Shown: piece by piece, positions 6,258 through 55,580 of the stretch
Layout: each line of letters opens with the position of its first letter
How positions within the stretch are numbered: the stretch's first letter is position 1
Source of the DNA: Elusimicrobiota bacterium
GTDB lineage: Bacteria > Elusimicrobiota > Elusimicrobia > UBA1565
Direction: 5' to 3'
Length of the DNA stretch: 64,000 bases
Assembly: GCA_041660925.1 (NCBI GenBank)
Contig: JBAZVI010000010.1
Location: 41,519 to 105,518 of the forward strand
Notes under the pieces: generated by a model
Database searches by the model: none
What the model was told of the DNA's origin: nothing
What the model saw: only the letters and a program-made list of their open reading frames with translations
Program-made: the position numbers and the translations under genes

Positions 6258-6263
6258 GTAGGG

Positions 6264-6314
6264 CTAGGAGCGTGTCCCGAGGGTCGCAGCGTCATCGTCG
6301 GGACACGCTCCTAG
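6264..6314 (-). promoter_or_regulatory. intercistronic 17-bp perfect stem-loop between two rSAM genes
   Basis: CTAGGAGCGTGTCCCGA (6264-6280) and TCGGGACACGCTCCTAG (6298-6314) with a 17-nt loop. The stem includes the stop codon of 6311..7384. Confidence 0.6.
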
Positions 6315-7384
6315 ATGGCTATGTGGGACTGGGCCTTGATCCGGTCGGCGTAGTGCTCGTGCATGCACTCGTCGTTGAGCGGGCAGTCGTGGCTGGTCGT
6401 GTGGCCCGGGAAGAGCTTCGCGGCCCACAGGCGCCGCACGATGGGCTTGAGCGCCTCCGTGCGCACGTTGCCGAAGCTGAGGGGGAGGTAGCAGCAGGGC
6501 ATGACATCCCCGTAGGCGGAGATGGCGAACTGGTTGCGCAGCTTCGCGCCGCACAGGTAGGGGATGTCGGGGGAGCTGAGGTAGTCGGCGCTGCGGAACG
6601 CGCGCTCCTTGCTCAGCAGCGAGTGCAGGAGCCCGAGCTCCTCCATCGTGAGGGGGATGTCCTTGCGGTCCCACCACTTGCCGCTGCGGATGGGCGCGAG
6701 GATGCGGACCTTGGTCCCCAGCGACTCCGCGAGCCGGAGCATGTCGCGCATCTCGTCGTTGCGGAGGTTCTCCTTCGTGGCGACCGTGGAGATGTAGCAG
6801 GGGATGCCGTGGCGGACGCAGAGCCGGACGCCCTCCACCGCCTTCGCGAAGAGGCCGGGCATGGCGCGGATCTCGTCGTGCTTCTCCGGGATGGGGCTGT
6901 CCAAGCTGACGCCGATCTGGTCGATGCCCGCCTCCTTGAGGGAGAGGAGCATGGGCTCGTCGAGCAGGAGCCCGTTGGTGTCCAGCGTGGACTTCATGCT
7001 GTTCTTGCGGGTGTGGCGCACGAGCGCGGGCAGGTCGGGGTAGATGAGCGGCTCGCCGCCGAAGAGGTGGACCTCCTGGCAGGCCAGCGCTCCGAGGTCC
7101 TCGATGAGCTTGAGGAGCTCCGCGTGCGAGAGCTCCTTGTCCTTCTCCTTCTTGTAGAAGTCGATGCCGCAGTGGCGGCAGCGGCACTGGCAGCGGTAGG
7201 TCAGGAGGATGACCGCCGCGGCGCCGTAGAGCGGCAGGAAGCGGCGCACGGCGGGCACGACGTGGGAGAAATAGGCGCGCACGAGGCGCATGAAGGCGGC
7301 GCGGCGGTAGTAGTCGAGGGGCTTGCGCTTGAACCAGAAGGTCAGCGAGTTGACCGCGTCGAGGGCGGCGGACTTGATGCTCAT
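6311..7384 (-). CDS. radical SAM/SPASM-like protein (CxCxCxxC cluster paralog)
   Basis: Contains LTYRCQCRCRHCG, HLFGGEPLIY, DTNGLLL, VSLDSPIPEKHDEIRA and the C-terminal YLCGAKLRNQFAISAYGDVMPCCYLP...HDCP. Paralog of 9378..10448 and of the C-terminal half of ORF 1..2468. Confidence 0.85.
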   Translation of the reverse strand: MSIKSAALDAVNSLTFWFKRKPLDYYRRAAFMRLVRAYFSHVVPAVRRFLPLYGAAAVILLTYRCQCRCRHCGIDFYKKEKDKELSHAELLKLIEDLGALACQEVHLFGGEPLIYPDLPALVRHTRKNSMKSTLDTNGLLLDEPMLLSLKEAGIDQIGVSLDSPIPEKHDEIRAMPGLFAKAVEGVRLCVRHGIPCYISTVATKENLRNDEMRDMLRLAESLGTKVRILAPIRSGKWWDRKDIPLTMEELGLLHSLLSKERAFRSADYLSSPDIPYLCGAKLRNQFAISAYGDVMPCCYLPLSFGNVRTEALKPIVRRLWAAKLFPGHTTSHDCPLNDECMHEHYADRIKAQSHIAI

Positions 7385-7493: not shown

Positions 7494-7838
7494 TCAACGT
7501 TTGCGGCGCATCTGGCGGGACAGATGCTTAAGGGTGGAGTACAGGAGTCCGCGCTCCGAGGGGGTCCGGTCGCGGAGCAGGCCGCCGACTTTCGAGCTCC
7601 AGTCGTCGTCGGCGGAAGGGTTCGGCAAGGGGTCGTCGAGGAGCGCGCCCATGCGCACGGCGAGGGCCTTGGCCAGGCGCTGGAGCGCGGCGAGGCTGAT
7701 CTTCTTCGTCCCGCGCTCGATCTGCCCGATATAAGAGGGGTGCATCCCGGCGCGCTCCCCCAGCTCTTCCTGGGTCCAGCCGCGCCGGTGGCGCTCGCCT
7801 CTCACCCGTCGGCCGATCCCGTCATAGACGCCGCTCAT
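7494..7838 (-). CDS. XRE-family helix-turn-helix transcriptional regulator
   Basis: WTQEELGERAGMHPSYIGQIERGTKKISLAALQRLAKAL is a canonical Cro/C1-type HTH. Confidence 0.85.
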   Translation of the reverse strand: MSGVYDGIGRRVRGERHRRGWTQEELGERAGMHPSYIGQIERGTKKISLAALQRLAKALAVRMGALLDDPLPNPSADDDWSSKVGGLLRDRTPSERGLLYSTLKHLSRQMRRKR

Positions 7839-7841
7839 TTA

Positions 7842-8131
7842 GGAGTCCGTCCGAGTAATAGCGTATTCCCCGGAGGCCCTCAGCCTGAGTCGTGCGCAAG
7901 GCGCGACGAGCGAGCATAGCGCCGCTATGTGAGCGAGGAGCAACGCGGCGCACGACCGGGATGGGGCCTCCCGCTCCGCCCCATCTCCTCGTAGGAGGAG
8001 CGGGTCGCGCGCTATCGGGCTGCGCCTTCGTCGTTCGTCGCTTACGATGCCCTGCATCGCCGCGCTCCTCTCTCCTCGGCTCGCTCCAACAGCGCGCGAC
8101 CGGAGAACACGCTATTACTCGGACGGACTCC
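7842..8131. repeat. 290-bp multi-stem palindromic element E1
   Basis: Perfect 23-bp termini GGAGTCCGTCCGAGTAATAGCGT (7842-7864) and the reverse complement (8109-8131), extendable to about 32 bp. Internal hairpins include GTCGTGCGC...GCGCACGAC, GATGGGG...CCCCATC and CTCCTCGTAGGAGGAG. Confidence 0.8.
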
Positions 8132-8239
8132 AGGGCGTGATTCTATAGCAAACAGGGGGCAGGGGACAGATTCCAAAGGGTGTGAACGAAAAAACCCTGT
8201 AGTATTGACCGAACAGGACAATCATGCTATCCTGGGGGT

Positions 8240-8575
8240 ATGCTCGCCTATGTGCTCGACGACGATCCCGCCCAGCTCTGCCTCGCCTCGCGGATGCTCG
8301 TACGGCTGGGCTGGGAGACGAGGGGGGCGCCGGACTGCGATTCCCTCCATCGGCTGTGCGCGCAGACGCCGCCGGACCTGGCGCTCTGCGACGTGAACGT
8401 GGGGAGGGAGGACGGCATCGAGTTCTGCCGGAAGCTCCGGGAACTCTGTCCGTCCATGCGCTGCGTCATCATGAGCGGGGACCCGGAGAACGAGGAGCGC
8501 GCGGTCCGCGCGGGCTTCCGCGTCTTCCTTCGCAAGCCCTTCGCGCTGGAAGACCTCGCGCAGCTAGTCCAATAG
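8240..8575 (+). CDS. stand-alone response-regulator receiver domain protein
   Basis: VLDDDP, the DLALCDVNV phospho-acceptor context and FLRKPF. 111 aa with no output domain. Confidence 0.8.
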   Translation: MLAYVLDDDPAQLCLASRMLVRLGWETRGAPDCDSLHRLCAQTPPDLALCDVNVGREDGIEFCRKLRELCPSMRCVIMSGDPENEERAVRAGFRVFLRKPFALEDLAQLVQ

Positions 8576-9377: not shown

Positions 9378-10448
9378 ATGACGAGCGTCCATCCCATCCA
9401 TCGCGCCTCCTACGCCCTGCGCCGCGTCTTCCGGCGGTTCTACGGCCACCCCGTCTTCGTCTTCCTCCTGCGCCTCTATTTCCGGCATATCCTCGGGCTT
9501 CTCCGCCTCTTCTCGCCGCTCTTCGGCGCGACCGCGGTCTTCTCGGTGACCTACCGCTGCCAGTGCAGCTGCGTGCACTGCGGCGCGGGCCTCTTCCGCA
9601 AGGACGCGCAGCGCGAGCTGACCCCCGAGGAGGTCCGCGCCTTCATCGACGATCTCGCGCGCCTGGGGGCCTCCGGCATCCACTTCTTCGGCGGAGAGCC
9701 GCTCGTCGCCCCCGGCATCGTCGACTACGTGCGCCACGCGAAGGCGAAGGGGCTCTTCGCCTCGCTCGACTCCAACGGGCTGCGCCTCGACGAGGCGATG
9801 GTCCTCGAGCTCCAGGGCGCCGGCATCGACCTCCTGCGCGTGAGCATCGACAGCCCCGACGCGGCGACGCACGACCGCCTGCGCGGGGTGGCCGGCACCT
9901 TCGAGAAGGCCCTCGAGGCCCTGCGGGCCTGCGTGCGCCACGGCGTGCCCTGCTTCATGTCGCTCTACGCGACCCGCGAGAACCTCGCCGACGGGACCCT
10001 GCGGCGCTCCATCGCGCTGGCGCGCTCCATCGGCGCGCGGGTCCGCATCCTCTCGGCGATCCAGACGGGCAAGTGGATCGGCCGCGAGGGCATCGGACTC
10101 TCCGGGGCGGAGCTCAAGGAGCTGCGCTCGCTGCTCGACCCGGACTGGGTCTGCTGGGAGACCGAGTTCCTCAACAGCGCCGAGGTCCCTTTCTGGTGCA
10201 ACTCGATGATCCGCAACAAGTTCGACGTCTCCGCCTACGGCGACGTGATGGCCTGCTGCTACATGCCGCTGACCTTCGGCAACATCCGCGAGGAGCCGCT
10301 CGAGAAGGTCGTGCACCGGATGTGGCGCTCGGAGCTCTTCGCGAGCCATCAGGAGCACTTCGACTGCCCCATGAACGATCCGCGCTTCATGGAGCGCTAC
10401 GGGGAGAAGCTCCGCGCCGCCGGCGGGTGCGGAGCGCGCGGGGAGTGA
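9378..10448 (+). CDS. radical SAM/SPASM-like protein (CxCxCxxC cluster paralog)
   Basis: Contains VTYRCQCSCVHCG, HFFGGEPLV, DSNGLRL, VSIDSPDAATHDRLRG and FWCNSMIRNKFDVSAYGDVMACCYMP...FDCP. Confidence 0.85.
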   Translation: MTSVHPIHRASYALRRVFRRFYGHPVFVFLLRLYFRHILGLLRLFSPLFGATAVFSVTYRCQCSCVHCGAGLFRKDAQRELTPEEVRAFIDDLARLGASGIHFFGGEPLVAPGIVDYVRHAKAKGLFASLDSNGLRLDEAMVLELQGAGIDLLRVSIDSPDAATHDRLRGVAGTFEKALEALRACVRHGVPCFMSLYATRENLADGTLRRSIALARSIGARVRILSAIQTGKWIGREGIGLSGAELKELRSLLDPDWVCWETEFLNSAEVPFWCNSMIRNKFDVSAYGDVMACCYMPLTFGNIREEPLEKVVHRMWRSELFASHQEHFDCPMNDPRFMERYGEKLRAAGGCGARGE

Positions 10449-10511: not shown

Positions 10512-11537
10512 GTGCGTAGAGACGCCGCCGCTGAGCCGGTCGAGATCGCCCTGGACCTCACGTACCGCTGCAACCAGTCCTGCCGCTTCTGCTTCCTGCC
10601 CGACAACCCCGCGCTCAAGCGCGGCCGGGGGGAGCTGACGCTCCCGCGCTGGAAGGCGCTCGTCGACGCCTTCGCGGGTCGTCCCCGCACCTTCCTTCTG
10701 ACGGGGGGAGAGCCGCTGCTGCGCCGCGACCTGCCCGCCCTCATCGAGTACATCAAGAGCCGCGGGCACCGCGCCGTGCTGAGCACCAACGGCACCCTCC
10801 TCGACGAGAAGACCGCCGTCCGGCTCGTCGAGGCGGGGGTCGACGAGGTCGCGGTCTCCCTGCACGGCGACCGGTCGATCCATGACCATTACACGCGCCG
10901 CAGGGGCTCCTACGACAAGGCCATCGTCGGCCTGCGCTGCATGCTGCGCGCGCGCGCGGGCACCGAGACGCGCGCCGTCGTCCGCTGCACGATCCACCCG
11001 GGCAACCACCGCGTCCTCCACCGCCTCGCCCGCTCGCTCGTCGCGCTCAAGCCCGACGGGATCTCCTTCGGCCACCTCGAGTACTGCACGCGCGGAGCGC
11101 TGACGCTCAGCGCGAAGGCCGTGCGCGACTGCAAGGCGGGGAAGGTCTCCCTGCGCCCTTCGGAGGGCCGCGCCAAGGGCATCGACCCGCGCGTCGTCTG
11201 CGAGCAGGTCGCGCGCATCAGCTCGCTCGGGCGCCGCGACGTCGCCTTCTACCCGGATCTCGACGACTCCGGCATCCTGCGCTGGTACGACCCGAAGCTC
11301 CCCTCCGAGCGCCGCGGCGGCTGTCCGGCGCAGTGGGGCAGCCTGTGGCTGTCTCCCGCCGGAGAGGTGCTCACCTGCCAGCCATTGGCCCTGCCGATGG
11401 GGAGCGGGAAGGGCGCCGCGTGGCGCGCGTCCTGGGAAGGCGCGCGCTACCGCCGCTTCCGCGAGGCCCTGCGCGGCATGGGAGGCTGCCTTCCCATGTG
11501 CGCGCGCTGCGGACGCGAACAAGGGGAGCGCGCGTGA
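10512..11537 (+). CDS. radical SAM/SPASM-domain protein
   Basis: GTG start. Contains LTYRCNQSCRFCF, LLTGGEPLL, STNGTLL, VSLHGDRSIHD and the C-terminal CPAQWGSLWLSPAGEVLTC...CLPMCARCG. Confidence 0.8.
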   Translation: MRRDAAAEPVEIALDLTYRCNQSCRFCFLPDNPALKRGRGELTLPRWKALVDAFAGRPRTFLLTGGEPLLRRDLPALIEYIKSRGHRAVLSTNGTLLDEKTAVRLVEAGVDEVAVSLHGDRSIHDHYTRRRGSYDKAIVGLRCMLRARAGTETRAVVRCTIHPGNHRVLHRLARSLVALKPDGISFGHLEYCTRGALTLSAKAVRDCKAGKVSLRPSEGRAKGIDPRVVCEQVARISSLGRRDVAFYPDLDDSGILRWYDPKLPSERRGGCPAQWGSLWLSPAGEVLTCQPLALPMGSGKGAAWRASWEGARYRRFREALRGMGGCLPMCARCGREQGERA

Positions 11538-12376
11538 ACGCGGAGGCCCCCGCCCGGACCCGGCCGGAGGCCGGGCGCGGGAACGCGGCCTGCGCGCTGA
11601 GCGTCGACGTCGAGGAATGGTGCCAGACGGTGCTCTTCGAGGGCGGGCCGCGCGACGACGGAGCGCGCACCCGCCTGCCGGAGAGCGTCTCCGGGCTCCT
11701 CGCCCTCCTCGAGCGCCGCGGCGTGAAAGCCACCTTCTTCTTCGTCGGCGCGCTCGTCGAGAAGTACCCGGAGACCGTGCTCCTCGTCGCCGCGCGCGGG
11801 CACGAACTCGCCAGCCACGGCTGGCGCCACCGCCTCGTCCACCGCATGGGCGCCGCCGAGTTCGAGGAGGACGTGCGCCGCTCCGTCGAAGCCCTGCGCC
11901 GGGTCTCCGGCGCCGAGGTCGTCGGCTACCGCGCGCCCACCTGGTCGCTGGGCCGGCACAAGGCGCTGGCCGCGGCGCTGCTCCCGCGGCTCGGGCTGCG
12001 CTACGACTCGAGCCTCTACCCTCTCGGCTTCCGGCCCGACGCCGAGCGCTTCCCGCGGACGCTCCCCGGCGGCCTCCTCGAGTTCCCGCCCTCGACCTTC
12101 CGCCTCCTCGGGGCGAACCTCCCTTTCGCCGGCGGGACCTTCCTGCGCTGCGCGCCCACCGGCTTCATCCTCGAGCGTCTGCGCGCCCTGCGCGCCGCCG
12201 GCCGGCCGGTCCACGCCTTCGCGCACAGCTGGGAGCTCGAGGGCCCGGCGCCCGAGGGCCTGCCGGCGTGGAAGCGCTGGGTCCAGTACGGGAACGTCGC
12301 GGGCGTGCGCGGCAAGCTCGAGGCCCTGCTCGAGGCCTTCCCTTTCTCTCCCGTGAGGGAGTGCCTCGGGCTATGA
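11534..12376 (+). CDS. polysaccharide deacetylase family protein (DUF3473/PEP-CTERM-locus type)
   Basis: GTG start with GTGA overlap. LSVDVEEWCQT...GVKATFFFVGALVEKYPE...GHELASHGWRH...GYRAPTW is typical of the NodB-fold deacetylase subfamily found in EPS loci. Confidence 0.75.
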   Translation: MNAEAPARTRPEAGRGNAACALSVDVEEWCQTVLFEGGPRDDGARTRLPESVSGLLALLERRGVKATFFFVGALVEKYPETVLLVAARGHELASHGWRHRLVHRMGAAEFEEDVRRSVEALRRVSGAEVVGYRAPTWSLGRHKALAAALLPRLGLRYDSSLYPLGFRPDAERFPRTLPGGLLEFPPSTFRLLGANLPFAGGTFLRCAPTGFILERLRALRAAGRPVHAFAHSWELEGPAPEGLPAWKRWVQYGNVAGVRGKLEALLEAFPFSPVRECLGL

Positions 12377-13284
12377 GCGCGCGCCGCGTCGACATCAAGG
12401 TCGGCTTCCAGTGCAACAACCTCTGCCACTTCTGCGTGCAGGGAGACAAGCGCGACCGCTTCCCCGACCGGCCCCTGCCGCGCATCCTCGCCGACCTGCG
12501 CCGCGCGCGCCGCGAGGGCATCGACGGGGTCGTGTTCACCGGCGGCGAGCCCACGCTGCACCGCGGGCTCCTCGACGCCGTCGCCGCGGCCCGGACGCTG
12601 GGATTTCGCGGCATCCAGATCCAGACCAACGGACGCAGCGCCGCCTACCCCGACTTCTGCCGGCGCCTCAAGGCCGCGGGCGCGACCGAGTTCTCGCCGG
12701 CGCTGCACGGTCCCGACGCGAAGACGCACGACGGCCTCACGCGCGCCCCCGGCAGCTTCAGGCAGACCGTGCAGGGCATCCGCAACGCCGTCGCCTGCGG
12801 GCTCTCCGTCATCACCAACAGCGTCGTGACCTCGAGCAACTACCGCAAGCTCCCCGCGCTGGCCCGCCTGCTCGTGGGTCTCGGCGTGCGCCAGTACCAG
12901 TTCGCCTTCATCCACATCGTCGGGCGGGCCTGGGAGAACCGGAGCTGGATCGTCCCGCGCAAGAGCGACGCCATGCCCTTCGTCCGCAAGGGGCTCGACG
13001 TCGGCCTGCGCGCCGGGGTCCGCTGCTACACCGAGGCCATCCCCTACTGCCTGATGAAGGGCTATGAGGCGTGCGTCGCCGAACGCATCATCCCCGACGG
13101 CCCCGTCGTGGACGCCGAGGAGACGCTCAAGAGCTTCCGCGCCTATCGGCAGGCGCACGGCAAGGCCAAGCGAGCCGAGTGCCGACGCTGCCGCTGGGAC
13201 CCGGTCTGCGAGGGCCCCTGGAAGGAGTACCCGGAGATCCACGGCTGGGACGAGTTCGTCCCGGTGAGGGGGCGCGCGCGATGA
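12373..13284 (+). CDS. radical SAM protein R1 (CNNxCxFC type)
   Basis: ATGA overlaps on both sides. Contains GFQCNNLCHFCV, VFTGGEPTL, QTNGR and the C-terminal CRRCRWDPVCEGPWKEY. Confidence 0.8.
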   Translation: MSARRVDIKVGFQCNNLCHFCVQGDKRDRFPDRPLPRILADLRRARREGIDGVVFTGGEPTLHRGLLDAVAAARTLGFRGIQIQTNGRSAAYPDFCRRLKAAGATEFSPALHGPDAKTHDGLTRAPGSFRQTVQGIRNAVACGLSVITNSVVTSSNYRKLPALARLLVGLGVRQYQFAFIHIVGRAWENRSWIVPRKSDAMPFVRKGLDVGLRAGVRCYTEAIPYCLMKGYEACVAERIIPDGPVVDAEETLKSFRAYRQAHGKAKRAECRRCRWDPVCEGPWKEYPEIHGWDEFVPVRGRAR

Positions 13285-14210
13285 GCCTGGGACTCCTCTC
13301 GCTGCTCAAGCCCGAGGATCCGCGCTGCTGCGACCTGCTCGGCGTGCTCGCCGGGGTCAAGCCCATGCTCCACGCGAGCGTGCGCGAGGAGGAGGCGCCG
13401 CGCTGGGACGCGCTCTGCCGGCGGCTCTCCCTGCGCCAGGCGCGACCGCTCATGCGCCCGGACCGGGGGACGGCCTTCCAGGACGGCGCGCGCATCGTCT
13501 TCGTCTCCCGCCGGGAGGGCGTCCTCAAGGCGGGCCTGCGCGCCTGGGCGCTGCCCCGCATCCCCGACAGCAACCGCGCGCTCGGGCGCCTGCTCGGCTA
13601 TCCGGAGTGCTGCGTGCGCGCCTATCTGCGCTGGGCGCCGCGGCCGGGGAAGAAGGAGGAGGACCTCGTGCGCGCCCTCGCGGACCGCACCCCGCGGGCC
13701 GACGATCCCCTGCCCTTCCTCCTCAACGACCTCTTCACCTTCGCCTCCACCCCGCTGCGCGCGCAGAGGGGGGAGGACAAGCTCTACGCGCGCCTCGCGC
13801 GCGAGAACCGGGGGGAAGGGACGCTGGAGCGGGGCGTCGTCTCCTGGCACCCCTGCTCCTACCGCTGCGCGCCGAGCCTGCGCTCCGCGCGGGCCGTCTT
13901 CTCGCTCATGAAGCGCTTCTTCCCGGGCGACGCCCGGGCGCTGAGAGCGTTCCTGAGCCGGCCCGTGCTCTACTTCGACCGCTTCGCCTTCGCGGCGCTC
14001 GACGGCGCCCGCTTCTCGCGCGGGGAGCGCGGCGCCCGCGAGGTCCGCTTCTCTTCGGTCGGCGCTCCGCGGGCCCCGCTCCCGGCCGCCCTGCGGCGGC
14101 GCCTGGCCGGCGGGGAGCTTTCCGTCTCCCGCGGCGCCGTGCGCGCGGGAGGCCGCCGGCTGGCCGGGGCCCCGCTGCTGCTCGACTTCTCGGAGGGAAC
14201 GGATGCCTGA
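13281..14210 (+). CDS. five-Cys GYPECC / WHPCxYRC protein P1 (uncharacterised; possibly DUF483-like)
   Basis: Contains CCDLLGVLAGVKPML, LLGYPECCVRAYLRW, PLPFLLNDLF and SWHPCSYRCAPSL. Paralog of 15105..16076 and 17254..18240. Confidence 0.65.
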   Translation: MSLGLLSLLKPEDPRCCDLLGVLAGVKPMLHASVREEEAPRWDALCRRLSLRQARPLMRPDRGTAFQDGARIVFVSRREGVLKAGLRAWALPRIPDSNRALGRLLGYPECCVRAYLRWAPRPGKKEEDLVRALADRTPRADDPLPFLLNDLFTFASTPLRAQRGEDKLYARLARENRGEGTLERGVVSWHPCSYRCAPSLRSARAVFSLMKRFFPGDARALRAFLSRPVLYFDRFAFAALDGARFSRGERGAREVRFSSVGAPRAPLPAALRRRLAGGELSVSRGAVRAGGRRLAGAPLLLDFSEGTDA

Positions 14211-15108
14211 CATCGCCCTCTGGCACCGCTGCAACAACAACTGCGTGATGTGCACGAACCCCGACGAGTTCTTCGAGGCGGCGGGGAAGAGCTACACGCT
14301 GGCGCGCCAGCGCGAGAAGCTCGAGCGCTACCTCTCCGGGGAGTTCGACGTCTACTTCAAGAACACCCGGCTCGACGACTACTTCCTGCTCACGGGCGGG
14401 GAGCCGACGCTGCACCCGCAGGTCCTCGAGCTCATGGCCTTCTTCCGGCGCCGCGCCGGCTCGCGCGAGCTGCGCGTGCTCAGCAACGGCCGGCGCTTCT
14501 GCTACCGCGACTTCACCGCCGAGTTCCTGCGACGCGCGGGACGGCCGCTGCTGACGGCGGTCGCGCTGCACGCGGCGACCGCGCGCGCCCACGACGCGGT
14601 GACCCGGGTGCGCGGGAGCTTCGCGCAGACCGCGGCGGGCCTGCGCAACCTCCTCGAGCTGCGCGGCCGCGGCCAGGAGGTCGAGGTCCGCGTCATCCTG
14701 CACGCGAAGACCCTGGCCGGCCTCCCCGCCCTGCTCCGCTTCCTGCGCCGGGGCTTCGGCGACCCCTCGGCGTACCGGCTCACGCTCATCTACTTCGAGG
14801 TGGAGGGGCAGTCGGAGAAGAACCTCCGGCGCCTCTTCGTCCCGCTCTCCCGCGTCGCGCGCGTCCTCGCGAAGCAGCGGGGCCTCCTGGCCGCCTTCCC
14901 GCGCCTGGAGCTCTACCATTTCCCGCTCTGCGTGCTTGCGGCGGAGCTGCGGCCGAACGCCCGCGTGACCCTGCCGCGCTCCGACCGCGTCTATCCGCCG
15001 GTCTGCCGGCGCTGCCCGGCGAAGAGCCGCTGCTTGGGACTGATGAAGTGGTACGAGGCGCTCCACGGCGACGGGGAGCTTTCCGCCTTGAAGAGAGGAG
15101 AAGCATGA
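14203..15108 (+). CDS. radical SAM protein R2 (CNNxCxxC type)
   Basis: 8-nt overlap upstream and ATGA downstream. Contains WHRCNNNCVMCT, LLTGGEPTL, LSNGRR and the C-terminal CRRCPAKSRCLG. Confidence 0.75.
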   Translation: MPDIALWHRCNNNCVMCTNPDEFFEAAGKSYTLARQREKLERYLSGEFDVYFKNTRLDDYFLLTGGEPTLHPQVLELMAFFRRRAGSRELRVLSNGRRFCYRDFTAEFLRRAGRPLLTAVALHAATARAHDAVTRVRGSFAQTAAGLRNLLELRGRGQEVEVRVILHAKTLAGLPALLRFLRRGFGDPSAYRLTLIYFEVEGQSEKNLRRLFVPLSRVARVLAKQRGLLAAFPRLELYHFPLCVLAAELRPNARVTLPRSDRVYPPVCRRCPAKSRCLGLMKWYEALHGDGELSALKRGEA

Positions 15109-16076
15109 AGAAGGCCCTGCGACTCGCCGCGAAGAAGCTCGAGCTGCGCGACTACGACCCGCACCTCTGCGACCTCATGGGGGTGCTCGCCGGCGTGAAG
15201 CCGGTGCTCTACACCGACATCGTCCCCCGCGACGAGCGCTACATCCAGGACCTCTGCCGCGTCTTCAGCCTCCGCTACCGCCTGCCCGAGCGCGAGAAGG
15301 GCCGGCAGTTCCATGCGCAGCGCAAGACGATGGTGCTCATGGGGCGCCGGGACGAGGACCTCCGCGCCGCCGAGGAGAGCTGGCGCGGGCTCAACGAGCG
15401 CGACGCGAAGGTCTCGGCGAAGGCCAACATCGACTGGGGCGTACTGCTCGGCTACCCCGAGTGCTGCGTGAAGGCCTACCTGCGCTGGCGCACGGGCAGC
15501 GGCTGCGGCCGCCGCGGCGGGCACCTGGTGGGAGCCATCGCGGAGGAGACGCCCCTCGGAGGGCCGCTCCCCTTCCTCCTCAACAACGTCTTCAACTACT
15601 TCTCCCTCATCGGCGCCGGCGCCCGCGACGTCGAGCGCTACCGCCGCTTCATGCGGCTCAACCGCGACAAGGGGCTCGCCGTCTACAACGCGATCTCCTG
15701 GCACCCCTGCCAGTATCGCTGCAAGGAGAGCCTCTACCGGGCCGGCGTCGTCTACGGGCTCATGCGCCACTACTTCCCGGCGTGGGCGGACGCGATGCGC
15801 GAGAAGCTCGCGCGGCCGATGCTCTGTCTGGGCAAGTACGAGTTCGCGGTGTTCTCGACGGCGCGCGCGCGCCGGACCTCCTCCGGCGGCCTCGAGGTCG
15901 AGGTCGGCGAGGTCGCGGAGCCGCGCTCGCTGCTCTCGGCGGCCTTCGCCTCGCGGCTCGTGCGCGCCGGCGGCTTCACCCTGAAGGGCGGCCGGCTGAG
16001 CGTGGCGGGGAAGAAGGTCCCGCTCTCGGAGCCGGCGTACTGGCTGGACTTCCGCGGCCTGCAGGGGGCCGATTGA
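15105..16076 (+). CDS. five-Cys GYPECC / WHPCxYRC protein P2
   Basis: Contains LCDLMGVLAGVKPVLYTD, LLGYPECCVKAYLRW, PLPFLLNNVF and SWHPCQYRCKESL. Closest to P3 by eye. Confidence 0.65.
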   Translation: MKKALRLAAKKLELRDYDPHLCDLMGVLAGVKPVLYTDIVPRDERYIQDLCRVFSLRYRLPEREKGRQFHAQRKTMVLMGRRDEDLRAAEESWRGLNERDAKVSAKANIDWGVLLGYPECCVKAYLRWRTGSGCGRRGGHLVGAIAEETPLGGPLPFLLNNVFNYFSLIGAGARDVERYRRFMRLNRDKGLAVYNAISWHPCQYRCKESLYRAGVVYGLMRHYFPAWADAMREKLARPMLCLGKYEFAVFSTARARRTSSGGLEVEVGEVAEPRSLLSAAFASRLVRAGGFTLKGGRLSVAGKKVPLSEPAYWLDFRGLQGAD

Positions 16077-17257
16077 AGGACGCCGCGCTCGACGCGGGGG
16101 TCCGCGCCGCCGCCGCCGTCCTCTTCCTCCTCTGGGGCTGGCGCGCCGCGCGCGAGGACCTCGCGACCAAGCGCATCCCCAACCGGAGGGTGCTCCAGGG
16201 CTTCGCCCTCTGCGGGGCTCTGCTCGCCTGGGAGCTCGCGCTCACGGGGCTGGGCAACGCCGGGCGCGTCGAGCGCTTCCTCCTCTGGAACTTCTACGGG
16301 GACTTCGCCCGGCACCTCTCGCTCTGCGTGGTCGGCGGGCTCACGCTCTGGGTGGGCGGGGTCTGGCCGGCCGGCGACGCGAAGCTCTTCATGGCCTGCG
16401 CGGCCCTGCTGCCGCTGCTCCGCCCGGACCTGCGCCTCTTCCCGCACTCCCTCTTCCTCGGCATCCTCGTCAACATCTTCATCCCCGCGGCCGTCGTGCT
16501 CTTCACGGCCGGGCTGCGGCACCGGGCGACGGCGCCCTCCGACGGGACCTCGCTGCTCTTCCGCGCGGGGAAGGCCTTCGCCGCATGGCGCGCGGCGGCG
16601 CCGGAGACGCTCAAGCAGGTCCCGGCGTACGCCGTCAACCTCGCCGCCATCTTCCTCGTCCAGGCGCTGCTCTCGGAGGCGATGAGCGGCGGGCTCGCCC
16701 GCGTGCTGCGCCGCCCCACGCTCCTCTATTTCCTCCTCTTCTTCCTCTGGGAGCGCGCCTCCGTCTGGCTGCGCGACCGCCGCGCGGCCCGGGCCTCGCT
16801 CGTCCTGCTCGCCGTCTACCTGCTCTCCGCGTGGCTGCGCGAGCCGCGCCTGCTGGGCGTGCTGGGACTCTCGCTCGTGCGGATGCTCGAGTTCAGCCTC
16901 TTCTTCTTCCTCGGCCGCGTCGTCATCTCCGCCATCCTCGAGGGGCGCGCGACGCGCTGGATCATGCCCGAGGACCTGCGGCCGGGGATGGTGCTCACCC
17001 CGCGTCAGCTCGACATCCTTCGCTCCGACGAGGACTTCTTCGCCGAGCACTTCGAGCCCCTCTTCGTGGAGGGGGTCACCGAGGAGCAGGCCGCGGCGCT
17101 GCGCCAGTGGATGGCGACCCATCCGGTGAAGGACGCGCGCGTCGAGGTCAGCGAGGGGGAGCCCTTCGGGCTCTGGATCGTCGTCGGCTCGGCGCTCACC
17201 CTCCTGCTGGGCGGGGACCTGATCGGGCCGCTGCGGCGGCTGCTGGGGGGCGCGTGA
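16073..17257 (+). CDS. A24-family (prepilin/TadV-CpaA-like) aspartyl peptidase-like polytopic membrane protein with extra C-terminal domain
   Basis: Putative TTG start (TTGA overlap). AAREDLATKRIPN matches the DxxxxRIPN first-Asp motif and WPAGDAKLFMACAALL matches the GDxKL second-Asp motif. There are multiple hydrophobic helices and a roughly 100-aa soluble tail (MPEDLRPGMVLTPRQLDIL...). The start codon is uncertain. Confidence 0.55.
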   Translation: MKDAALDAGVRAAAAVLFLLWGWRAAREDLATKRIPNRRVLQGFALCGALLAWELALTGLGNAGRVERFLLWNFYGDFARHLSLCVVGGLTLWVGGVWPAGDAKLFMACAALLPLLRPDLRLFPHSLFLGILVNIFIPAAVVLFTAGLRHRATAPSDGTSLLFRAGKAFAAWRAAAPETLKQVPAYAVNLAAIFLVQALLSEAMSGGLARVLRRPTLLYFLLFFLWERASVWLRDRRAARASLVLLAVYLLSAWLREPRLLGVLGLSLVRMLEFSLFFFLGRVVISAILEGRATRWIMPEDLRPGMVLTPRQLDILRSDEDFFAEHFEPLFVEGVTEEQAAALRQWMATHPVKDARVEVSEGEPFGLWIVVGSALTLLLGGDLIGPLRRLLGGA

Positions 17258-18240
17258 AGACCGAGCTGGCCAAGGTCCCTCTGCGGCCGCAGGACCCGCA
17301 CCTCTGCGACCTCTTCGGGGTGCTCGCGGGGGTCAAGCCCGTCCTTTATACGGACGTGCTGCCTTCGGAGGAGGTCTACATCCGCGACCTCTGCCGGGCG
17401 CTGGGGCTGCGCTGGCTCAAGCCGGAGCGGCCGTCCGGGAAGCATTTCCACTTCCAGAAGAAGGCCATGTTCCTCGTGGGACGCCGCGCGGGGGACCTCG
17501 CGGCGGCGGCGCGCTGCTGGCGGGGACTGCTCGCGCCCCCGGCCGGCGGGCCGCGGGGACCGAGCGCGTCTTTGCGCAACAACTTCGACTGGGGCTGCTG
17601 GCTCGGCTACCCGGAATGCTGCGTGCGCGCCTACCTGCGCTGGCGCGACGAGCGCGACGCCGGCGCGGCGAGCGCCGACCTGGTGCGCGCGACCGCCGAG
17701 GCCACCCCCGCGGGAGGGCCGCTCCCCTTCCTGCTCAACGACGTGTTCAACCACTTCTCGCTGCTCTCGACGGCCGCCCGCGCTCAGGACAAGCGGCGCT
17801 ACGAGCGCTTCATCGCCCTCAACCGCGGCCTCATGCTGCCCTCGCTCAACGCCGTCTCCTGGCATCCGTGCACCTACCGCTGCGAGGAGAGCCTCTATAA
17901 GGCCGGCGTCGTCTACGGCCTCATGCGCCGCTACGCGCCGGACTGGGCGCGGCGCATCCGCGAGGGGCTGGCGCGGCCCGTGCTCCACTTCGGGAAGTAC
18001 GAGTTCGCGGTCTTCGAGGACGCGCGCTCGCGCCGGGGCCCCGCCGGGGCCCTGCGTGTCCGGGCCGGGAAGCTGCGCGCTCCGCGCTCGCTGCTCTCCC
18101 CGGGGCTGCGGACGCGGCTGACACGCGCAGGGGGCTTCGAACTCCGCGCCGGGGCGCTCGTCGTCGGCGGCAAGGCGGTCGCGCGGCCGGAGCCGCCGCT
18201 CTGGCTCGACTTCCGCGGGACCCAGGGGTGCGTCGCATGA
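17254..18240 (+). CDS. five-Cys GYPECC / WHPCxYRC protein P3
   Basis: GTG start with GTGA overlap. Contains LCDLFGVLAGVKPVLYTD, WLGYPECCVRAYLRW, PLPFLLNDVF and SWHPCTYRCEESL. Confidence 0.65.
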   Translation: MKTELAKVPLRPQDPHLCDLFGVLAGVKPVLYTDVLPSEEVYIRDLCRALGLRWLKPERPSGKHFHFQKKAMFLVGRRAGDLAAAARCWRGLLAPPAGGPRGPSASLRNNFDWGCWLGYPECCVRAYLRWRDERDAGAASADLVRATAEATPAGGPLPFLLNDVFNHFSLLSTAARAQDKRRYERFIALNRGLMLPSLNAVSWHPCTYRCEESLYKAGVVYGLMRRYAPDWARRIREGLARPVLHFGKYEFAVFEDARSRRGPAGALRVRAGKLRAPRSLLSPGLRTRLTRAGGFELRAGALVVGGKAVARPEPPLWLDFRGTQGCVA

Positions 18241-19187
18241 GCGCCGCGCGGGTCAAGAAGGTCGTCGTCTTCACCGACTACCGCTGCAACAACCGCTGCG
18301 TCTTCTGCATCGACGCCTGCAAGCGGGACCTCCCCGCGCGCGGGACGAAGGAGGTGCTCCGGGACGTCTACCGCGCCGCCCGCGAGGGGGCCGGCTATCT
18401 CGAGCTCATCGGCGGCGAGGCGCCCATCCGGCCGGACTTCCTCCAGCTCGTACGCACCGCCCGCCGGCTCGGCATCCCGAAGATCGTCACCGCGACCAAC
18501 GGGCGGGCCTTCGCGCTGCGCTCCTTCGCCGGGGCGGCCGTGCGCGCGGGGCTCACCGACGTGATGTTCTCCCTGCACGGCGACACCGCGGCGGTCCACG
18601 ACCGGGCGACGCGCAGCCCGGGAAGCTTCCGCCAGCTCCTCGCGGGCATCGCGAACCTGCGTCGGCTCGGCTTCAGTCGCATCCACGGCAACACCACGGT
18701 CTATAAAGGGAACCTCGCGCGGGTGCCGGCGATCGCCCGACTCTACGCGCGCCTGGGCGTCGAGTTCGTGGAGTACATCTTCGTCGACCCCACCTACGGA
18801 GGGGCCCACGACGACTTCGCGCGCCTCGTCCCGCGCATCTCCCGGGCGGCCCCGCGCATGCGCTCGGCGCTCGAGGTCGGCCGCCGGGCCGGGTACCGGG
18901 AGTGGCTGGTCCGCTACGTCCCGCTCTGCCACTTCCAGGGCTGGGAGGAGCAGGTCAGCGAGCGGGTCGAGCGCCGCCTCTTCCACACCCGGCACTGGGC
19001 GCCGGATTTCCGCAACGAGGACGTGAGCTCCTCCCGGGCCCGGATCGCCCGGCGCAAGCCTCCGCGCTGCCGCCCCTGCGCTCTATACAAGGAATGCGAG
19101 GGCATCTGGACCGAGTACCTGCGCCGCTACGGTGACGCCGAACTCCACCCGGTCTTGAAGTCCAAGCGCGCTAAAAAGCAAATATAA
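18237..19187 (+). CDS. radical SAM protein R3 (CNNxCxFC type)
   Basis: ATGA overlap with P3. Contains DYRCNNRCVFCI, ELIGGEAPIR, ATNGR and the C-terminal CRPCALYKECEGIWTEY. Confidence 0.8.
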   Translation: MSAARVKKVVVFTDYRCNNRCVFCIDACKRDLPARGTKEVLRDVYRAAREGAGYLELIGGEAPIRPDFLQLVRTARRLGIPKIVTATNGRAFALRSFAGAAVRAGLTDVMFSLHGDTAAVHDRATRSPGSFRQLLAGIANLRRLGFSRIHGNTTVYKGNLARVPAIARLYARLGVEFVEYIFVDPTYGGAHDDFARLVPRISRAAPRMRSALEVGRRAGYREWLVRYVPLCHFQGWEEQVSERVERRLFHTRHWAPDFRNEDVSSSRARIARRKPPRCRPCALYKECEGIWTEYLRRYGDAELHPVLKSKRAKKQI

Positions 19188-19355
19188 CGCTCATTTTGCG
19201 TTTGGCTCCCGCTCACGCGGCTGAAAACGCGTTTTATTGTTTTTTCGCTGAAAAGCGAGTCTTCCCGTCGGAGAAAGGCCCCCGGAGGCCTCCAAAATTT
19301 ATATCATGAGACCTCGTAAACAGGGCTCCGGCCCTATCTTGGAGGAGTAAACCTC

Positions 19356-21624: not shown

Positions 21625-23739
21625 TTGCCCCACCGCTTCAAGGACGAGTGGCTCGTTCGCGCGGCCCTGACCCTTCCCGGGATGAACGGGAAGGAGCTCG
21701 AGTGCATGCGCGAGAGCGGCAAGCCCTGGCTGGCCCACCTGATCATCGAGGCGGGGCGCGCCTCTCCCGACGAGCTCCTGAAGGCCGTTCAGTCGGTGCA
21801 TTGCGTCGATTCCGCCGACCCCGGCCCGGGAGAGATCGACAAGATGGCGCTCGGGCTCATCCCCGAGAAGGTCTGTCGGGCCCGGACGGTCCTGCCCTAT
21901 CGCGCTCACGGCGACTCCATCGAGGTCCTGACCTGCGCCCCCATCGACATGGACCTGCTGCAGGACGTGCAGGCGGTCTGCGGGCGTCAGCCGCGCGCCC
22001 TCTATGTCCTGCCCGAGCGGCTGCTCGCGCTCATCGACGGGGTCTATAAAGGAGATTCCGTCGTCTTCGAGCTGCTCAAGCGGGTCGAGGAGAAGGACAA
22101 GGTCGAGGTCGTCGACGCGGTCCAGGCGGCCGCCGGGGCGGAGTCCCCGGTCATCCGGCTCGTCGACTCCCTCATCGCCCGCGCCGTGCGCATGGGCGCT
22201 TCCGACATCCACGTCGAGCACGAAGAGACCTCGAGCGTCGTGCGCATGCGCGTCGACGGGATCCTGAAGACGGTGCTGACGCTCCCGCGCGTCCTCGCCG
22301 CCGGGGCCGTGGTCTCGCGCATCAAGATCATGGCGAACCTCGACGTGGCCGAACACCAGCAGCCCCAGGACGGGCGGGCCAAGCTGCGCGTGGGCGGCGT
22401 CGACATCGGCCTGCGCGTCTCGACTCTGCCGACGACCTGGGGCGAGAAGGTCGTGCTGCGCGTCCTCGACCGGCGCACGGCCGAGGTCCCGCTCGGGAAG
22501 CTGGGTCTGCGGCCCGACCTCATCGAGCGCCTCAAGAAGCTGCTCGCACTGCCTCAAGGCCTCCTCTTCGTGACCGGCCCGACCGGCTCGGGCAAGACCA
22601 CGACGCTCTACTCCATCCTCAGCTCCATGAAGACGGGCGACACGAACATCGTGACGGTCGAGGACCCCGTCGAGTACCGGCTCGAGGGGATCAACCAGGT
22701 CCAGGTCAACGAGAAGCGCGGCCTGACCTTCGCCGGCATCCTGCGCTCCGTGCTGCGCCAGGACCCCGACATCATCCTCGTCGGCGAGGTCCGCGACCAT
22801 GAGACGGCCGACATCGCGCTGCAGGCGGCGCTGACCGGGCACGTCGTCCTCTCCTCGCTGCACACCAACGACGCCGTCGGCGCCGTCCCGCGCCTCGCGG
22901 ACATGGGCGCCGAGCGCTTCAAGATCGCCTCGGGCCTCGTCGGGGTGCTCGCCCAGCGCCTCGTGCGCCGGCTCTGTCCCGACTGCCGGACGAAGGGCGA
23001 CCCGTCGAAGCTCGACGCGGACCTGCGAGCGCTCATGGAGAAGTGGAAGATCGCGCCCGCCTTCATGGAGGCGAAGGGCTGCCTCAAGTGCGATTTCTCC
23101 GGTTATAAGGGACGCCTGCCGCTCCTCGAACTCTTCGAGGTCGACGCCGGGATGCGTGAGAAGATCTCCGTCGGGATGAGCGAGGGGGCGCTGCGTCAGG
23201 AAGCGCTGAATTCGGGGATGCTCTCGCCTTTGAGCCGCGACGCCGCCTGGCATGTCGCCGGCGGCGACACCTCCGTCGTGGAGGCGCTGCCGTTCCTCGG
23301 TCTTGAAGCGTCGCGGCCTTCTGAAGCGAAGGCGCCGGCGGAGTCCGCTCCGGTGCCGTCCCTCAAGAAGCGCGTGCTCGTCGCCGACGACGATGCGGTC
23401 GTGCGCGTGATCATGCGGCAGGTCCTCGTCAAGGAGGGCTACGAGGTCGAGGAGGCCGTCGACGGAGTGAAGGCCCTCGAGCGCGTCGCGGCCTGGCAGC
23501 CGGACCTGCTCGTCTGCGACCTCAACATGCCGAACCTCGACGGCTTCGGCGTCATCCGCAGCGTGCGCGAGAACCTCGGCCGCGGCGACCTGCCCATCAT
23601 CGTGATGACCGCCGAGACCGACGACCGCAGCCAGGAGACGGCCCTCGCGCTCGGCGCCGACGACTACATCGTCAAGCCGACGAAGCCGCCCATCATCCTC
23701 GCCCGCATCCGCGGGATCTTTCGGCGCTTAGAGAAATAG
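21625..23739 (+). CDS. GspE/PilB-family secretion ATPase with C-terminal response-regulator receiver domain
   Basis: T2SSE_N-like N-domain (LIPEKVCRARTVLPY), Walker A GPTGSGKTTTLYS, ILVGEVRD, tetracysteine CPDC...CLKC, then KRVLVADDDAVV...LLVCDLNMPNLDG...IVKP (REC). The true start may be ATG 21682 or 21706. Confidence 0.85.
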   Translation: MPHRFKDEWLVRAALTLPGMNGKELECMRESGKPWLAHLIIEAGRASPDELLKAVQSVHCVDSADPGPGEIDKMALGLIPEKVCRARTVLPYRAHGDSIEVLTCAPIDMDLLQDVQAVCGRQPRALYVLPERLLALIDGVYKGDSVVFELLKRVEEKDKVEVVDAVQAAAGAESPVIRLVDSLIARAVRMGASDIHVEHEETSSVVRMRVDGILKTVLTLPRVLAAGAVVSRIKIMANLDVAEHQQPQDGRAKLRVGGVDIGLRVSTLPTTWGEKVVLRVLDRRTAEVPLGKLGLRPDLIERLKKLLALPQGLLFVTGPTGSGKTTTLYSILSSMKTGDTNIVTVEDPVEYRLEGINQVQVNEKRGLTFAGILRSVLRQDPDIILVGEVRDHETADIALQAALTGHVVLSSLHTNDAVGAVPRLADMGAERFKIASGLVGVLAQRLVRRLCPDCRTKGDPSKLDADLRALMEKWKIAPAFMEAKGCLKCDFSGYKGRLPLLELFEVDAGMREKISVGMSEGALRQEALNSGMLSPLSRDAAWHVAGGDTSVVEALPFLGLEASRPSEAKAPAESAPVPSLKKRVLVADDDAVVRVIMRQVLVKEGYEVEEAVDGVKALERVAAWQPDLLVCDLNMPNLDGFGVIRSVRENLGRGDLPIIVMTAETDDRSQETALALGADDYIVKPTKPPIILARIRGIFRRLEK

Positions 23740-30756: not shown

Positions 30757-30922
30757 CCTTATTAGGGTAGCCCACGATGGGGGAGGCCCACAGGTGCCGA
30801 GGGCCCATTCAAGGGTAGGCAGACGGCCCAAGCCGGCCTGGGCCTTTCAGATGGCTATCCTCATACGCATCAAATGCTTTAAAACAGGGTGGTTTTTTGA
30901 CATGATGGATATCTAGGAGGCC

Positions 30923-39030: not shown

Positions 39031-39104
39031 GCGGGCGTGGTTCAATGGTAGAACGCTACCTTGCCAAGGTAGAGACGGCGGTTCGATTCCGCTCGCCCGC
39101 TCCA
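39031..39104 (+). tRNA. tRNA-Gly (anticodon GCC), CCA encoded
   Basis: The acceptor GCGGGCG/CGCCCGC, D-arm GTTC..GAAC, anticodon stem CTACC/GGTAG with loop TTGCCAA, and T-arm GGCGG-TTCGATT-CCGCT fold by hand. Confidence 0.9.
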
Positions 39105-39955: not shown

Positions 39956-40226
39956 CATCAGCGGAAGCTCGGGCGGTCGTGACCGCGGACATGCGCGCGG
40001 TCGTGATGGATCGACGCAGACGCACACGGCGCGAAGCAGCAGCGGACGGCGCCGGGCAGCACATCTTCCGGCCTCAGAGGTGTGGCTTGTTCGCGCCGAG
40101 GAACATTACGCCGAATTGTAATTGCACCCCTGCTTATTCCTGCGACCGCGGGAATACTACTTCCTCATCTCACTCATTCCGGCAAGTTCATTTCTGGGCC
40201 ATTAGCTCAGACGGAGATCTCATTCA

Positions 40227-41327: not shown

Positions 41328-41328
41328 T

Positions 41329-54392: not shown

Positions 54393-54460
54393 GCGGTACT
54401 CCAACAGTGGGTCCCGAGTATTGCGCGCTTTGGGATCAAGTGTTACACTATTTGCAAGGC

Positions 54461-55572: not shown

Positions 55573-55580
55573 ACCCTCTG

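Follow-up and report, generated by a model that had tools for sequence, protein, structure and literature searches.

What does a bacterium make with three radical S-adenosylmethionine (rSAM) enzymes, three cysteine-rich proteins that lack a characterised function and a membrane peptidase, all encoded in one run of overlapping genes? The question is raised by a stretch of 64,000 nucleotides from an Elusimicrobiota bacterium (assembly GCA_041660925.1, contig JBAZVI010000010.1, positions 41,519 to 105,518 of the forward strand), referred to here as the window, in which seven genes at 12373-19187 follow one another in the order R1-P1-R2-P2-A24-P3-R3. R1-R3 are the rSAM enzymes, P1-P3 the Cys-rich proteins, and the central gene encodes a protein resembling the A24 family of aspartyl peptidases. 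The reading favoured here, with confidence only slightly above even, is that these genes form an expanded and undescribed maturation module of the His-Xaa-Ser (HXS) type, in which P is a partner subunit of the rSAM enzyme and the A24-like protease removes a leader; an HXS-type branch with R, P and A24-like components would then be characteristic of Elusimicrobiota and DPANN-type archaea. The module is an elaboration of HXS-type rSAM maturation systems rather than something categorically new, and variants of this kind have in part been modelled by database curators (HxsA4 and HxsC4).

The operon and its three protein families

The seven open reading frames (ORFs), all on the plus strand, lie exactly where a first-pass annotation had placed them: R1 at 12373-13284 (303 residues), P1 at 13281-14210 (309), R2 at 14203-15108 (301), P2 at 15105-16076 (323), the A24-like gene at 16073-17257 (394), P3 at 17254-18240 (328) and R3 at 18237-19187 (316). 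Each junction is a start/stop overlap, as had been claimed; from R1 to R3 these are ATGA, an 8-nt ATG...TGA at P1/R2, ATGA, TTGA, GTGA and ATGA, the five other than P1/R2 being 4 nt long, and a GTG at 18228 offers an alternative start for R3. A six-frame hidden Markov model (HMM) scan of the window, which has a G+C content of ~70%, returned exactly three P genes, three R genes and one A24-like gene.

R1, R2 and R3 are Radical_SAM proteins by Pfam and have no transmembrane segment by hydropathy analysis. Their CxxxCxxC motifs (CNNLCHFC, CNNNCVMC and CNNRCVFC, respectively) and the small C-terminal Cys motif had been recognised correctly from the start; the latter reads PxC...CxxCx5C, recurs in natural R-P fusions and is predicted to serve an auxiliary cluster. 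The best-scoring curated families are HxsC and HxsC4. R1 reaches 165.9 bits against the HxsC4 model NF038332 (cut-off 500) and 82 bits against the HxsC model TIGR03977, R3 reaches 130.1 bits against NF038332 (cut-off 500), and R2, the nearest of the three to canonical HxsC, reaches 152 bits against TIGR03977 (cut-off 267.9). On these scores R1-R3 are relatives of HxsC and HxsC4, not members. R1 scores equally well against BlsE and HxsC among the NCBIfam models, and it is also the best-conserved member of the module, with 1989 homologues at E<=1e-20, ~60% identity across Elusimicrobia and archaeal orthologues that score 276-317 bits. Identity to the syntenic genes of locus L001 (Elusimicrobia GWC2_64_44) is 61% for R1, 49% for R2 and 59% for R3, and R3 is 59-63% identical to its orthologues in L001 and L007, whereas within the window R2 is 29% and R3 38% identical to R1. 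Because each R has an outside orthologue at 49-63% identity yet the three are so unlike one another, they must be old, functionally distinct paralogues.

P1-P3 are likewise paralogous and align over their full length, as the first-pass annotation had it, although six Cys residues are invariant among the three and not five. Across 65 family members only four (CC...CxxxC) are invariant, within the motifs YPxCC and (WH)PCxYxC; the full set of invariant positions is Y117, P118, C120, C121, N160, C202 and C206, and K32, W199, H200 (58 of 65), P201, Y204 and S209 are nearly so. Together these make a Cys4(+His) site accompanied by polar residues. In contrast to the ancient R paralogues, the P set is a recent local expansion. 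In the alignment P1 is 40% identical to P2 and 47% to P3, and BLASTP gives 59% for P2-P3, 44% for P1-P3 and 39% for P1-P2; the 59% of P2-P3 compares with <=47% to any outside protein, and the 44% of P1-P3 with <=35% to outside proteins, strain-level orthologues in a sister strain excepted. Since P1, P2 and P3 are mutually closest, their triplication was lineage-specific, recent and local, and it put one P copy beside each R.

The weak likeness of P to DUF483 (PF04467), suggested in the first-pass annotation, is real in that P1-P3 have the GYPxCC...HPCxxxC core, but it stays below the Pfam gathering cut-off of 25 bits (P1 21.6, P2 20.3, P3 15.5) and the aligned region is confined to the GYPECC stretch. 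The cut-off is passed by relatives found with the P profile (P0107 57.2, P0154 40.4 and P0062 26.7 bits), and 43 of the 65 family members match DUF483 at E<=0.01. P is thus a divergent branch of the DUF483 superfamily and not a member by the curated test, with additional N-terminal alpha/beta and C-terminal beta domains in P1-P3 beyond the DUF483 core. A word-indexed search with P2 found 25 homologues among 5.8 billion proteins, mostly in metagenome-assembled genomes of Elusimicrobia, while 719 of 1.84 billion cluster representatives matched a P profile at E<=1e-3. The AlphaFold2 (AF2) model of P2 is a compact three-domain fold of high confidence (predicted local distance difference test, pLDDT, 91.9; predicted template modelling score, pTM, 0.90).

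The claim that proteins of this type have no characterised function holds. P gave no match in NCBIfam, PADLOC or PHROG, and the P2 model had no fold match at E<=0.001 in the Protein Data Bank (PDB; Foldseek) or BFVD. Three candidate relationships were rejected: the top Foldseek matches, 2guk and NleE, have E-values of ~0.02-0.07 and cover about a third of P; the sole matches of the P profile among PDB sequences, to GAPDH, are chance matches; and profile-profile comparison with HxsD gave an hhalign probability of 0.1%. P proteins have no transmembrane segment by hydropathy analysis and are cytoplasmic.

The A24-like protein is polytopic, with ~8-9 hydrophobic or transmembrane segments by hydropathy analysis and a soluble insert at roughly residues 295-360. 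It scores 22.1 bits against Pfam Peptidase_A24 (cut-off 26.5), with residues 17-137 covering profile positions 2-102 of 104, and has no match in NCBIfam, PADLOC or PHROG. A word-indexed search found one real relative, and the family was therefore assembled from the fetched loci. In 11 bacterial and archaeal homologues D29, W98, A100, G101, D102 and K104 are invariant; D29 lies in DLATKRIPN (D-x4-[KR]-I-x-N) and D102 in WPAGDAKLF (WPAGD[AV]K), and we take them to be the two catalytic aspartates of A24/GXGD proteases. Like the prepilin peptidases (PilD/TadV; FlaK/PibD), the protein is polytopic, with its first Asp near the N-terminus and its second in an (A/G)GD(A/V)K motif, and the putative substrates in relatives of the module have a basic leader, a Gly and a hydrophobic helix. 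Unlike them, it has ~250 extra C-terminal residues that include the soluble insert, falls under the Pfam cut-off and is encoded inside an rSAM operon, not a pilus locus.

Kinship with His-Xaa-Ser systems

The HXS system (HxsA/B/C/D) was reportedly predicted by Haft and Basu in 2011, work that is cited in PMC9062424. In 2026 it was shown to be an anti-phage barrier in E. coli, where the matured effector stops phage DNA entry from the periplasm (PMC13128918). The canonical system has four genes (D-B-C-A) and is 99.7% Pseudomonadota; HxsC binds HxsD, and HxsB and HxsC are both needed for a +8 Da modification of HxsA and for its non-canonical N-terminal cleavage, for which no protease was identified (PMC13128918).

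Curated Hxs components occur in the relatives of the window operon. HxsB is above its cut-off of 370 bits in L001 (477 bits) and L041 (477.6 bits), HxsD above its cut-off of 50 in L083 (58.3 bits) and L041 (50.6 bits), and HxsA4 (NF038313) above its cut-off of 55 in L073 (63.9 bits) and L083 (63.8 bits). R1 adjoins HxsB in L071 and L074, and L083 has the order HxsD-HxsD-HxsB-HxsA4-P. Short HxsA-like peptides with (His-Xaa-Ser)n tails were found in 10 loci, nine of which had been fetched purely by similarity to P. In the HxsA4-type peptides KK, F, E and G are invariant within the leader, and a further invariant Gly stands directly before a hydrophobic helix, after which the HxS array begins; judged from sequence, such an arrangement would suit a substrate that an A24-type enzyme cleaves at the cytoplasmic face.

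The window operon and the canonical system share HxsC as the closest relative of R1-R3 (together with HxsC4) and a combination of rSAM enzyme, partner protein and, as proposed here, an exported and N-terminally processed substrate. They differ in that the canonical system has a single HxsC and lacks both a DUF483 protein and a protease of its own, whereas the window has three HxsC-like paralogues (5-8 in relatives) and an A24-like protease, clusters of its type hold one to five P genes and often include sugar-modifying genes, and the precursors of its relatives are short and membrane-anchored with 5-20 HxS repeats, where the canonical precursor is a peptidoglycan-binding protein with five. Variant cassettes with extra HxsC-type enzymes have already been seen by curators, because NCBIfam contains models for HxsA4, HxsA3, HxsA2, HxsC4 and HxsD_rel (NF038315). 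The L073 and L083 peptides pass the HxsA4 model and HxsC4 is the best match of R1 and R3, but these two are not HxsC4 (166 and 130 against 500 bits) and no model matches P or the A24-like protein. No mention of HxsC4, HxsA4, HxsA3 or HxsA2 was found in the searchable literature. The designation of the operon as an undescribed system accordingly stands in so far as no described system explains it, and has to be amended in that R1-R3 point to a variant of HXS. PADLOC-DB 2.0, which predates publication of HXS, gave only generic rSAM similarity to viperins (<=57.7 bits).

Canonical partners are missing from the window itself. The best phmmer score for HxsB is 18 bits and the two rSAM genes upstream of the operon core, U1 and U2, have no TIGR03978 match; a six-frame scan with an HMM built from nine cluster-associated HxsD sequences (TIGR03976 / PF27806) found nothing; and for HxsA the window has no ORF with >=3 H-x-S/T in 40 residues, no leader motif and no HxsA-like HMM match. 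Since HxsA, HxsB and HxsD are all absent from the window, the substrate must come from a gene at another site or differ in kind. Between 10512 and 19187 the genes overlap, so that a short precursor-peptide gene would not fit in, and small ORFs in the gap at 7840-8240 are unconvincing as such. The judgement that this is not a classical cluster for a ribosomally synthesized and post-translationally modified peptide (RiPP) therefore describes the window correctly, but not the relatives, which are RiPP-like and have HxsA4-type peptides.

Synteny in other genomes shows which genes belong together. L001 reads HxsD, HxsB, HxsD-like, a Cys-rich secreted protein, R1, R2, A24-like, R3, R4, P (~40%), R5, Aminotran_5, a large membrane protein and a B12-binding rSAM protein; its A24-like protein is 37% identical to that of the window and occupies the same position. 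L001, L074 and L099 all have R1-R2-A24-R3 in this order. Because the order is kept in other Elusimicrobia, it is taken as ancestral, with the P genes interleaved in the window, and the mirrored arrangement remarked on at first is incidental. A24-like genes also lie within the R/P clusters of L037, L038, L041, L048, L071, L104, L115, L125 and L129. In an uncultured archaeon (L037, L038, L125) eight R, two to four P and one A24-like gene are present, and components occur in Woesearchaeota (L041), Nanohaloarchaeota (L048) and Aenigmatarchaeota (L040) as well as in many metagenome contigs (L104, L105, L111-116, L129), among which L105 alternates R-P-R-P. This conserved synteny and the invariant Asp motifs support the inclusion of the A24-like gene in the module, in line with the initial proposal.

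The proposal that rSAM enzymes and P work together is also supported, and the pairing of each R with a cognate P is plausible. When the count is limited to P genes flanked by 1.5 kb or more on both sides, an R lies within 400 nt of P in 10 of 44 cases from GTDB genomes and in 21 of 47 from metagenome contigs (23-45%). Natural fusions join the two families directly: in P0107 two P domains come after a full-length R, P0125 is R+P, P0130 is R+R+GFO/IDH/MocA+P, and further R-P fusions occur in a Myxococcales contig (L068) and in L129. A GFO/IDH/MocA oxidoreductase domain is fused to P in P0124 as well as P0130. The P0125 locus also holds HxsD, an HxsB-like rSAM gene (Pfam Radical_SAM + SPASM), an R1 orthologue and an A24-like gene. 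The AF2 model of P0125 forms one confident body (pLDDT 86.7, pTM 0.80), which is what a defined R-P interface would be expected to give. In the combined R/P/fusion alignment (A8), ~56 N-terminal residues of the P-only rows are misplaced. Only the rSAM half of P0125 matches solved structures, the nearest being SkfB, GDGT-MAS, BlsE, MoaA and viperin; because these span several substrate types, the substrate class of R is not readable from its fold. Functional coupling of R and P is thus supported by the fusions, by recurrent adjacency in bacteria and archaea and by the joint P0125 model.

A mechanism can be proposed from these observations. Each R would form a complex with a P subunit, and in the window operon P would stand where the canonical system has HxsD next to HxsC; the Cys4+His centre of P may bind a metal or Fe-S cluster, carry sulfur or present the substrate. 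The R enzymes would make successive and different radical modifications on a single exported, membrane-anchored peptide or protein. The intramembrane GXGD-type protease would then cut the leader in the fashion of a prepilin peptidase, after the conserved Gly at the start of the transmembrane segment. In relatives the substrate would be an HxsA4-type peptide with a basic leader, a transmembrane helix and a (His-Xaa-Ser)n tail; in this organism it would be encoded elsewhere or be unlike HxsA4.

Neighbouring genes and related loci

Translational coupling, claimed initially for the seven genes, holds for them and continues further upstream. R1 overlaps by ATGA with a polysaccharide-deacetylase homologue (PDA, 11534..12376, + strand; Polysacc_deac_1 73.1 bits, DUF3473 75.8 bits), which in turn overlaps by GTGA with the radical SAM/SPASM-like enzyme U2 (10512..11537, +; Pfam Radical_SAM 77.1 bits), so the coupled unit spans at least 10512-19187. 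A gap of 63 nt separates U2 from the radical SAM/SPASM enzyme U1 (9378..10448, +; Radical_SAM 91.7 bits, SPASM 30 bits). The operon probably starts with U1 at 9378 and extends to a terminator-like hairpin with a T-run behind it, directly 3' of R3 (19215-19232, +), one of 5 sites that a consensus scan found against 3.7 expected in shuffled sequence. The nearest curated families of U1, all far under their cut-offs, are AhbD (its best NCBIfam match, 115.7 bits against a cut-off of 500), NirJ and PqqE. PDA resembles the XrtA-associated type (TIGR03006, 184.5 bits against a cut-off of 276), and its adjacency to R1 is repeated in Elusimicrobia locus L073, where it is preceded by a U2-like domain (253 bits). 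That a deacetylase and SPASM enzymes are coupled to the core genes hints at additional (glyco)modification.

The operon closes a larger cluster. At the left end of the window (3-7384) lie a B12-binding protein with two rSAM domains, a FemAB-like gene (TIGR03019, 120 bits), a DVU_1553-like coenzyme A (CoA) ligase, a B12-binding rSAM protein and a SPASM rSAM protein, and the 7.5 kb upstream of the window (L072) contain seven more rSAM genes, four of them B12-binding, plus a methyltransferase. Window and L072 together give at least 16 rSAM genes in ~27 kb, and this supercluster has five proteins that combine B12-binding with rSAM domains (one with two rSAM domains) and several SPASM rSAM proteins. 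Group VI nitrogenase paralogues of groundwater Elusimicrobia have been described as lying close to 'extensive suites of radical SAM proteins', and tetrapyrrole chemistry was proposed for such loci (Meheust et al., 10.1101/765248). Phylum and style of locus are the same here; the difference is that the paper has no DUF483 proteins, peptidases or Hxs components (10.1101/765248). Among the proteins of the window that were compared with Pfam, which represent part of its ORFs, there was no nitrogenase paralogue. In Elusimicrobiales TamC13-45 (L008 / L011, 2652-7474), genes for an 834-aa NifH-like fusion and an Oxidored_nitro (NifD/K-like) protein are followed immediately downstream by a P homologue. 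The same locus has rSAM genes and a U32 peptidase and is of the kind reported for group VI nitrogenase paralogues.

DUF483 has been met before in another setting. The Thermus phages Cumys and phiMa carry modules of rSAM and DUF483 genes with no function assigned, and fusions of DUF483 with rSAM or methyltransferase domains have been noted (10.1101/2024.08.14.607894). Those modules were discussed as DNA modification and, unlike the loci described here, have no HxsC-like, HxsA or A24 context (10.1101/2024.08.14.607894).

Several further gene types recur around R/P clusters. Sugar-type genes include a DegT-rSAM fusion, an epimerase, NodU-like and Agl23-like genes and, by eye from sequence, GT2/GT4-like genes; a GT-B-like protein (also by eye) adjoins the HxsA4 peptide of L073. 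Glycosyltransferase-like or epimerase genes lie beside HxsA4-type peptides or inside R/P clusters at L073 15034-16503 and at L105 2712-4434 and 14242-15375. The Ser-rich repeats of HxsA4-type peptides may be glycosylated, and the sugar genes would denote either that or a non-peptide product. A cysteine-desulfurase-like Aminotran_5 gene adjoins P or R in four lineages (L001, L007, L048 and L074). Cys-rich proteins of ~300-370 aa with a hydrophobic N-terminal segment follow the HxsA-like peptide in L041 (1258-2151, 11684-12646) and L073 (16523-17623) and the HxsB/HxsD genes in L001 (3799-4884), the L001 and L073 proteins being 33% identical; no homologue of the L001 protein is present in the window. 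A conserved family also sits at the edges of R/P clusters (L001 761-1588; L007 1-474, minus strand; L048 34-528). Its L001 and L007 members have an N-terminal basic stretch, a Gly, a hydrophobic helix and a TYYPAPYG motif, with RG preceding the hydrophobic stretch, and all three, including the N-terminally incomplete L048 protein, share a G(I/V)G(T/V)..P...LDV-type motif. This TYYPAPYG family is a possible alternative cargo of the A24-like protease; the window has no protein of the YYPAPYG family.

Other features of the window were recorded in passing. A 32-nt inverted repeat (7842-7873 / 8100-8131; 94% complementary, 226 nt apart) lies between a divergent helix-turn-helix regulator (7494-7838, minus strand) and a stand-alone receiver-domain gene (8240-8575, plus strand) and may be a regulatory or mobile element. 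Downstream, 21625-23739 encodes an ATPase of the GspE/T2SSE type that has an MshEN domain and, at its C-terminus, a response-regulator receiver domain, and 27670-30846 (minus strand) a 1058-aa protein with four PLD-like (PLDc_2) domains. A tRNA-Gly(GCC) gene at 39031-39104 is followed at 40000-46000 by a stretch of low G+C (0.49-0.57 vs ~0.70 elsewhere) that looks like an island integrated at that tRNA gene, and a second low-G+C patch occurs at 54000-56000 (0.52 in a background of 0.67-0.71).

Competing explanations and significance

Several observations weigh against an HXS-type module. R1, R2 and R3 each miss the curated HxsC/HxsC4 cut-offs, though those families score best, and the nearest rSAM folds mix the RiPP maturase SkfB with a lipid synthase, the nucleoside-sugar enzyme BlsE and MoaA. 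P is without homology to HxsD, so that its replacing HxsD can only be surmised. HxsA-like, HxsB and HxsD genes and an ORF with HxS repeats are lacking in the window, and none of the three is among the annotated genes of the ~7.5 kb upstream (L072). Outside the window, about half to three quarters of the P genes lack an R in the surrounding 5 kb, often in genomes whose R cluster lies at another site, and L074 (HxsB, R1, HxsB, R2, A24, R3, rSAM, R4, R5) has no P; because of such orphan P genes and the P-less L074, P must be dispensable for some R, and R need not be near every P. Many flanking genes, moreover, are of sugar or small-molecule type (the deacetylase, the DegT fusion, glycosyltransferases and the GFO/IDH/MocA fusions).

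This last point leads to the main rival, which we consider unlikely but worth serious attention: the R/P module may belong to a non-peptide pathway, for an envelope sugar or glycan, a lipid or a tetrapyrrole-type cofactor, with the HxsC-like enzymes acting on a small molecule, P in a substrate-binding or redox role and the membrane protein as an anchor or an unrelated processing enzyme. The coupling of R1 to a deacetylase homologue, with the same pairing in L073, would suit such a pathway, as would the cluster of at least 16 rSAM genes, several of them B12-binding, with its FemAB-like, CoA-ligase-like and short-chain dehydrogenase/reductase (SDR) genes. So would the fusions of P to GFO/IDH/MocA domains and the glycosyltransferase-like, epimerase, DegT, NodU-like and Agl23-like flanking genes. 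R1 matches BlsE as well as HxsC, and BlsE, GDGT-MAS and MoaA are among the nearest folds; U1 and U2 resemble AhbC, AhbD and NirJ; and a P homologue stands beside NifH/NifD paralogues in L008, a type of locus for which tetrapyrrole chemistry has been proposed (10.1101/765248). Against it, HxsB, HxsD and HxsA4 peptides occur inside the same clusters in several phyla, with HxsA4 adjoining P, and the A24-like protease, its catalytic motifs intact, shares conserved synteny with R2 and R3. The sugar genes would also be compatible with a Ser-rich peptide that becomes glycosylated. A bolder version of cofactor chemistry, and an improbable one in our estimate, makes P a new carrier or scaffold on which HxsC-like enzymes build or modify a metal/sulfur or protein-derived cofactor without HxsA; the tripled R-P pairs, the AhbC/AhbD/NirJ-like SPASM enzymes and the supercluster would then jointly produce the cofactor postulated for the group VI nitrogenase-like enzymes of groundwater Elusimicrobia.

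The first-pass annotation had also allowed for P as the protein substrate, each R modifying its neighbouring P, for example by a Cys cross-link, or building a cofactor on it. A 1:1 ratio of R to P with translational coupling, the invariant Cys, His, Lys, Asn and Ser residues, the Aminotran_5 genes next to P or R and the NifH-/NifD-like neighbours in L008 would all be compatible with this, and the window genes supply no other substrate. It is nevertheless quite doubtful: L074 has orthologues of R1-R5 and no P and L001 five R to a single P, and because of this the R enzymes must have another substrate than P. The compact three-domain fold (pLDDT 92) and the fusion of P to R, once twofold, are commoner for a subunit than for a substrate, and many orphan P genes lie far from any R. 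That the A24-like gene simply encodes the prepilin peptidase of a type IV pilus or a type II secretion system, placed by chance among rSAM genes, is very improbable indeed. In its favour, the T2SSE/MshEN ATPase gene lies 2.4 kb downstream and there is a real, if weak, similarity to Pfam A24; however, the gene overlaps P2 and P3 by 4 nt each, its orthologues keep the R2-R3 position in other Elusimicrobia and sit in archaeal R/P clusters, its subfamily has a distinctive C-terminal extension, no pilin-type GFTLIE motif occurs anywhere in the window, and between the operon and the ATPase gene lie a terminator-like site and a gene for a glucan phosphorylase.

Four aspects of the HXS-type module appear to be undescribed: the DUF483-type P as a recurrent and sometimes fused partner of HxsC-like enzymes, a dedicated A24-like protease in such a module, the multi-paralogue architecture common to Elusimicrobia and DPANN archaea, and the precursor-less form with tripled P found in the window. 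DUF483, which is without a known function, hereby gains a concrete and testable role as partner subunit of HxsC-like radical SAM enzymes, and the A24-like protein becomes a candidate for the unexplained N-terminal cleavage of HxsA-type precursors. The HXS system is extended from the four-gene form of Pseudomonadota to a larger form in Elusimicrobia and DPANN archaea, with up to eight rSAM paralogues, glycan-type enzymes and an intramembrane protease of its own. If this reading is true, these poorly studied and mostly uncultured lineages would produce (glyco)peptides of a new family, anchored in the membrane, heavily modified and built on His-Ser repeats, and the operon would offer a way into the large rSAM gene suites noted in Elusimicrobia genomes.

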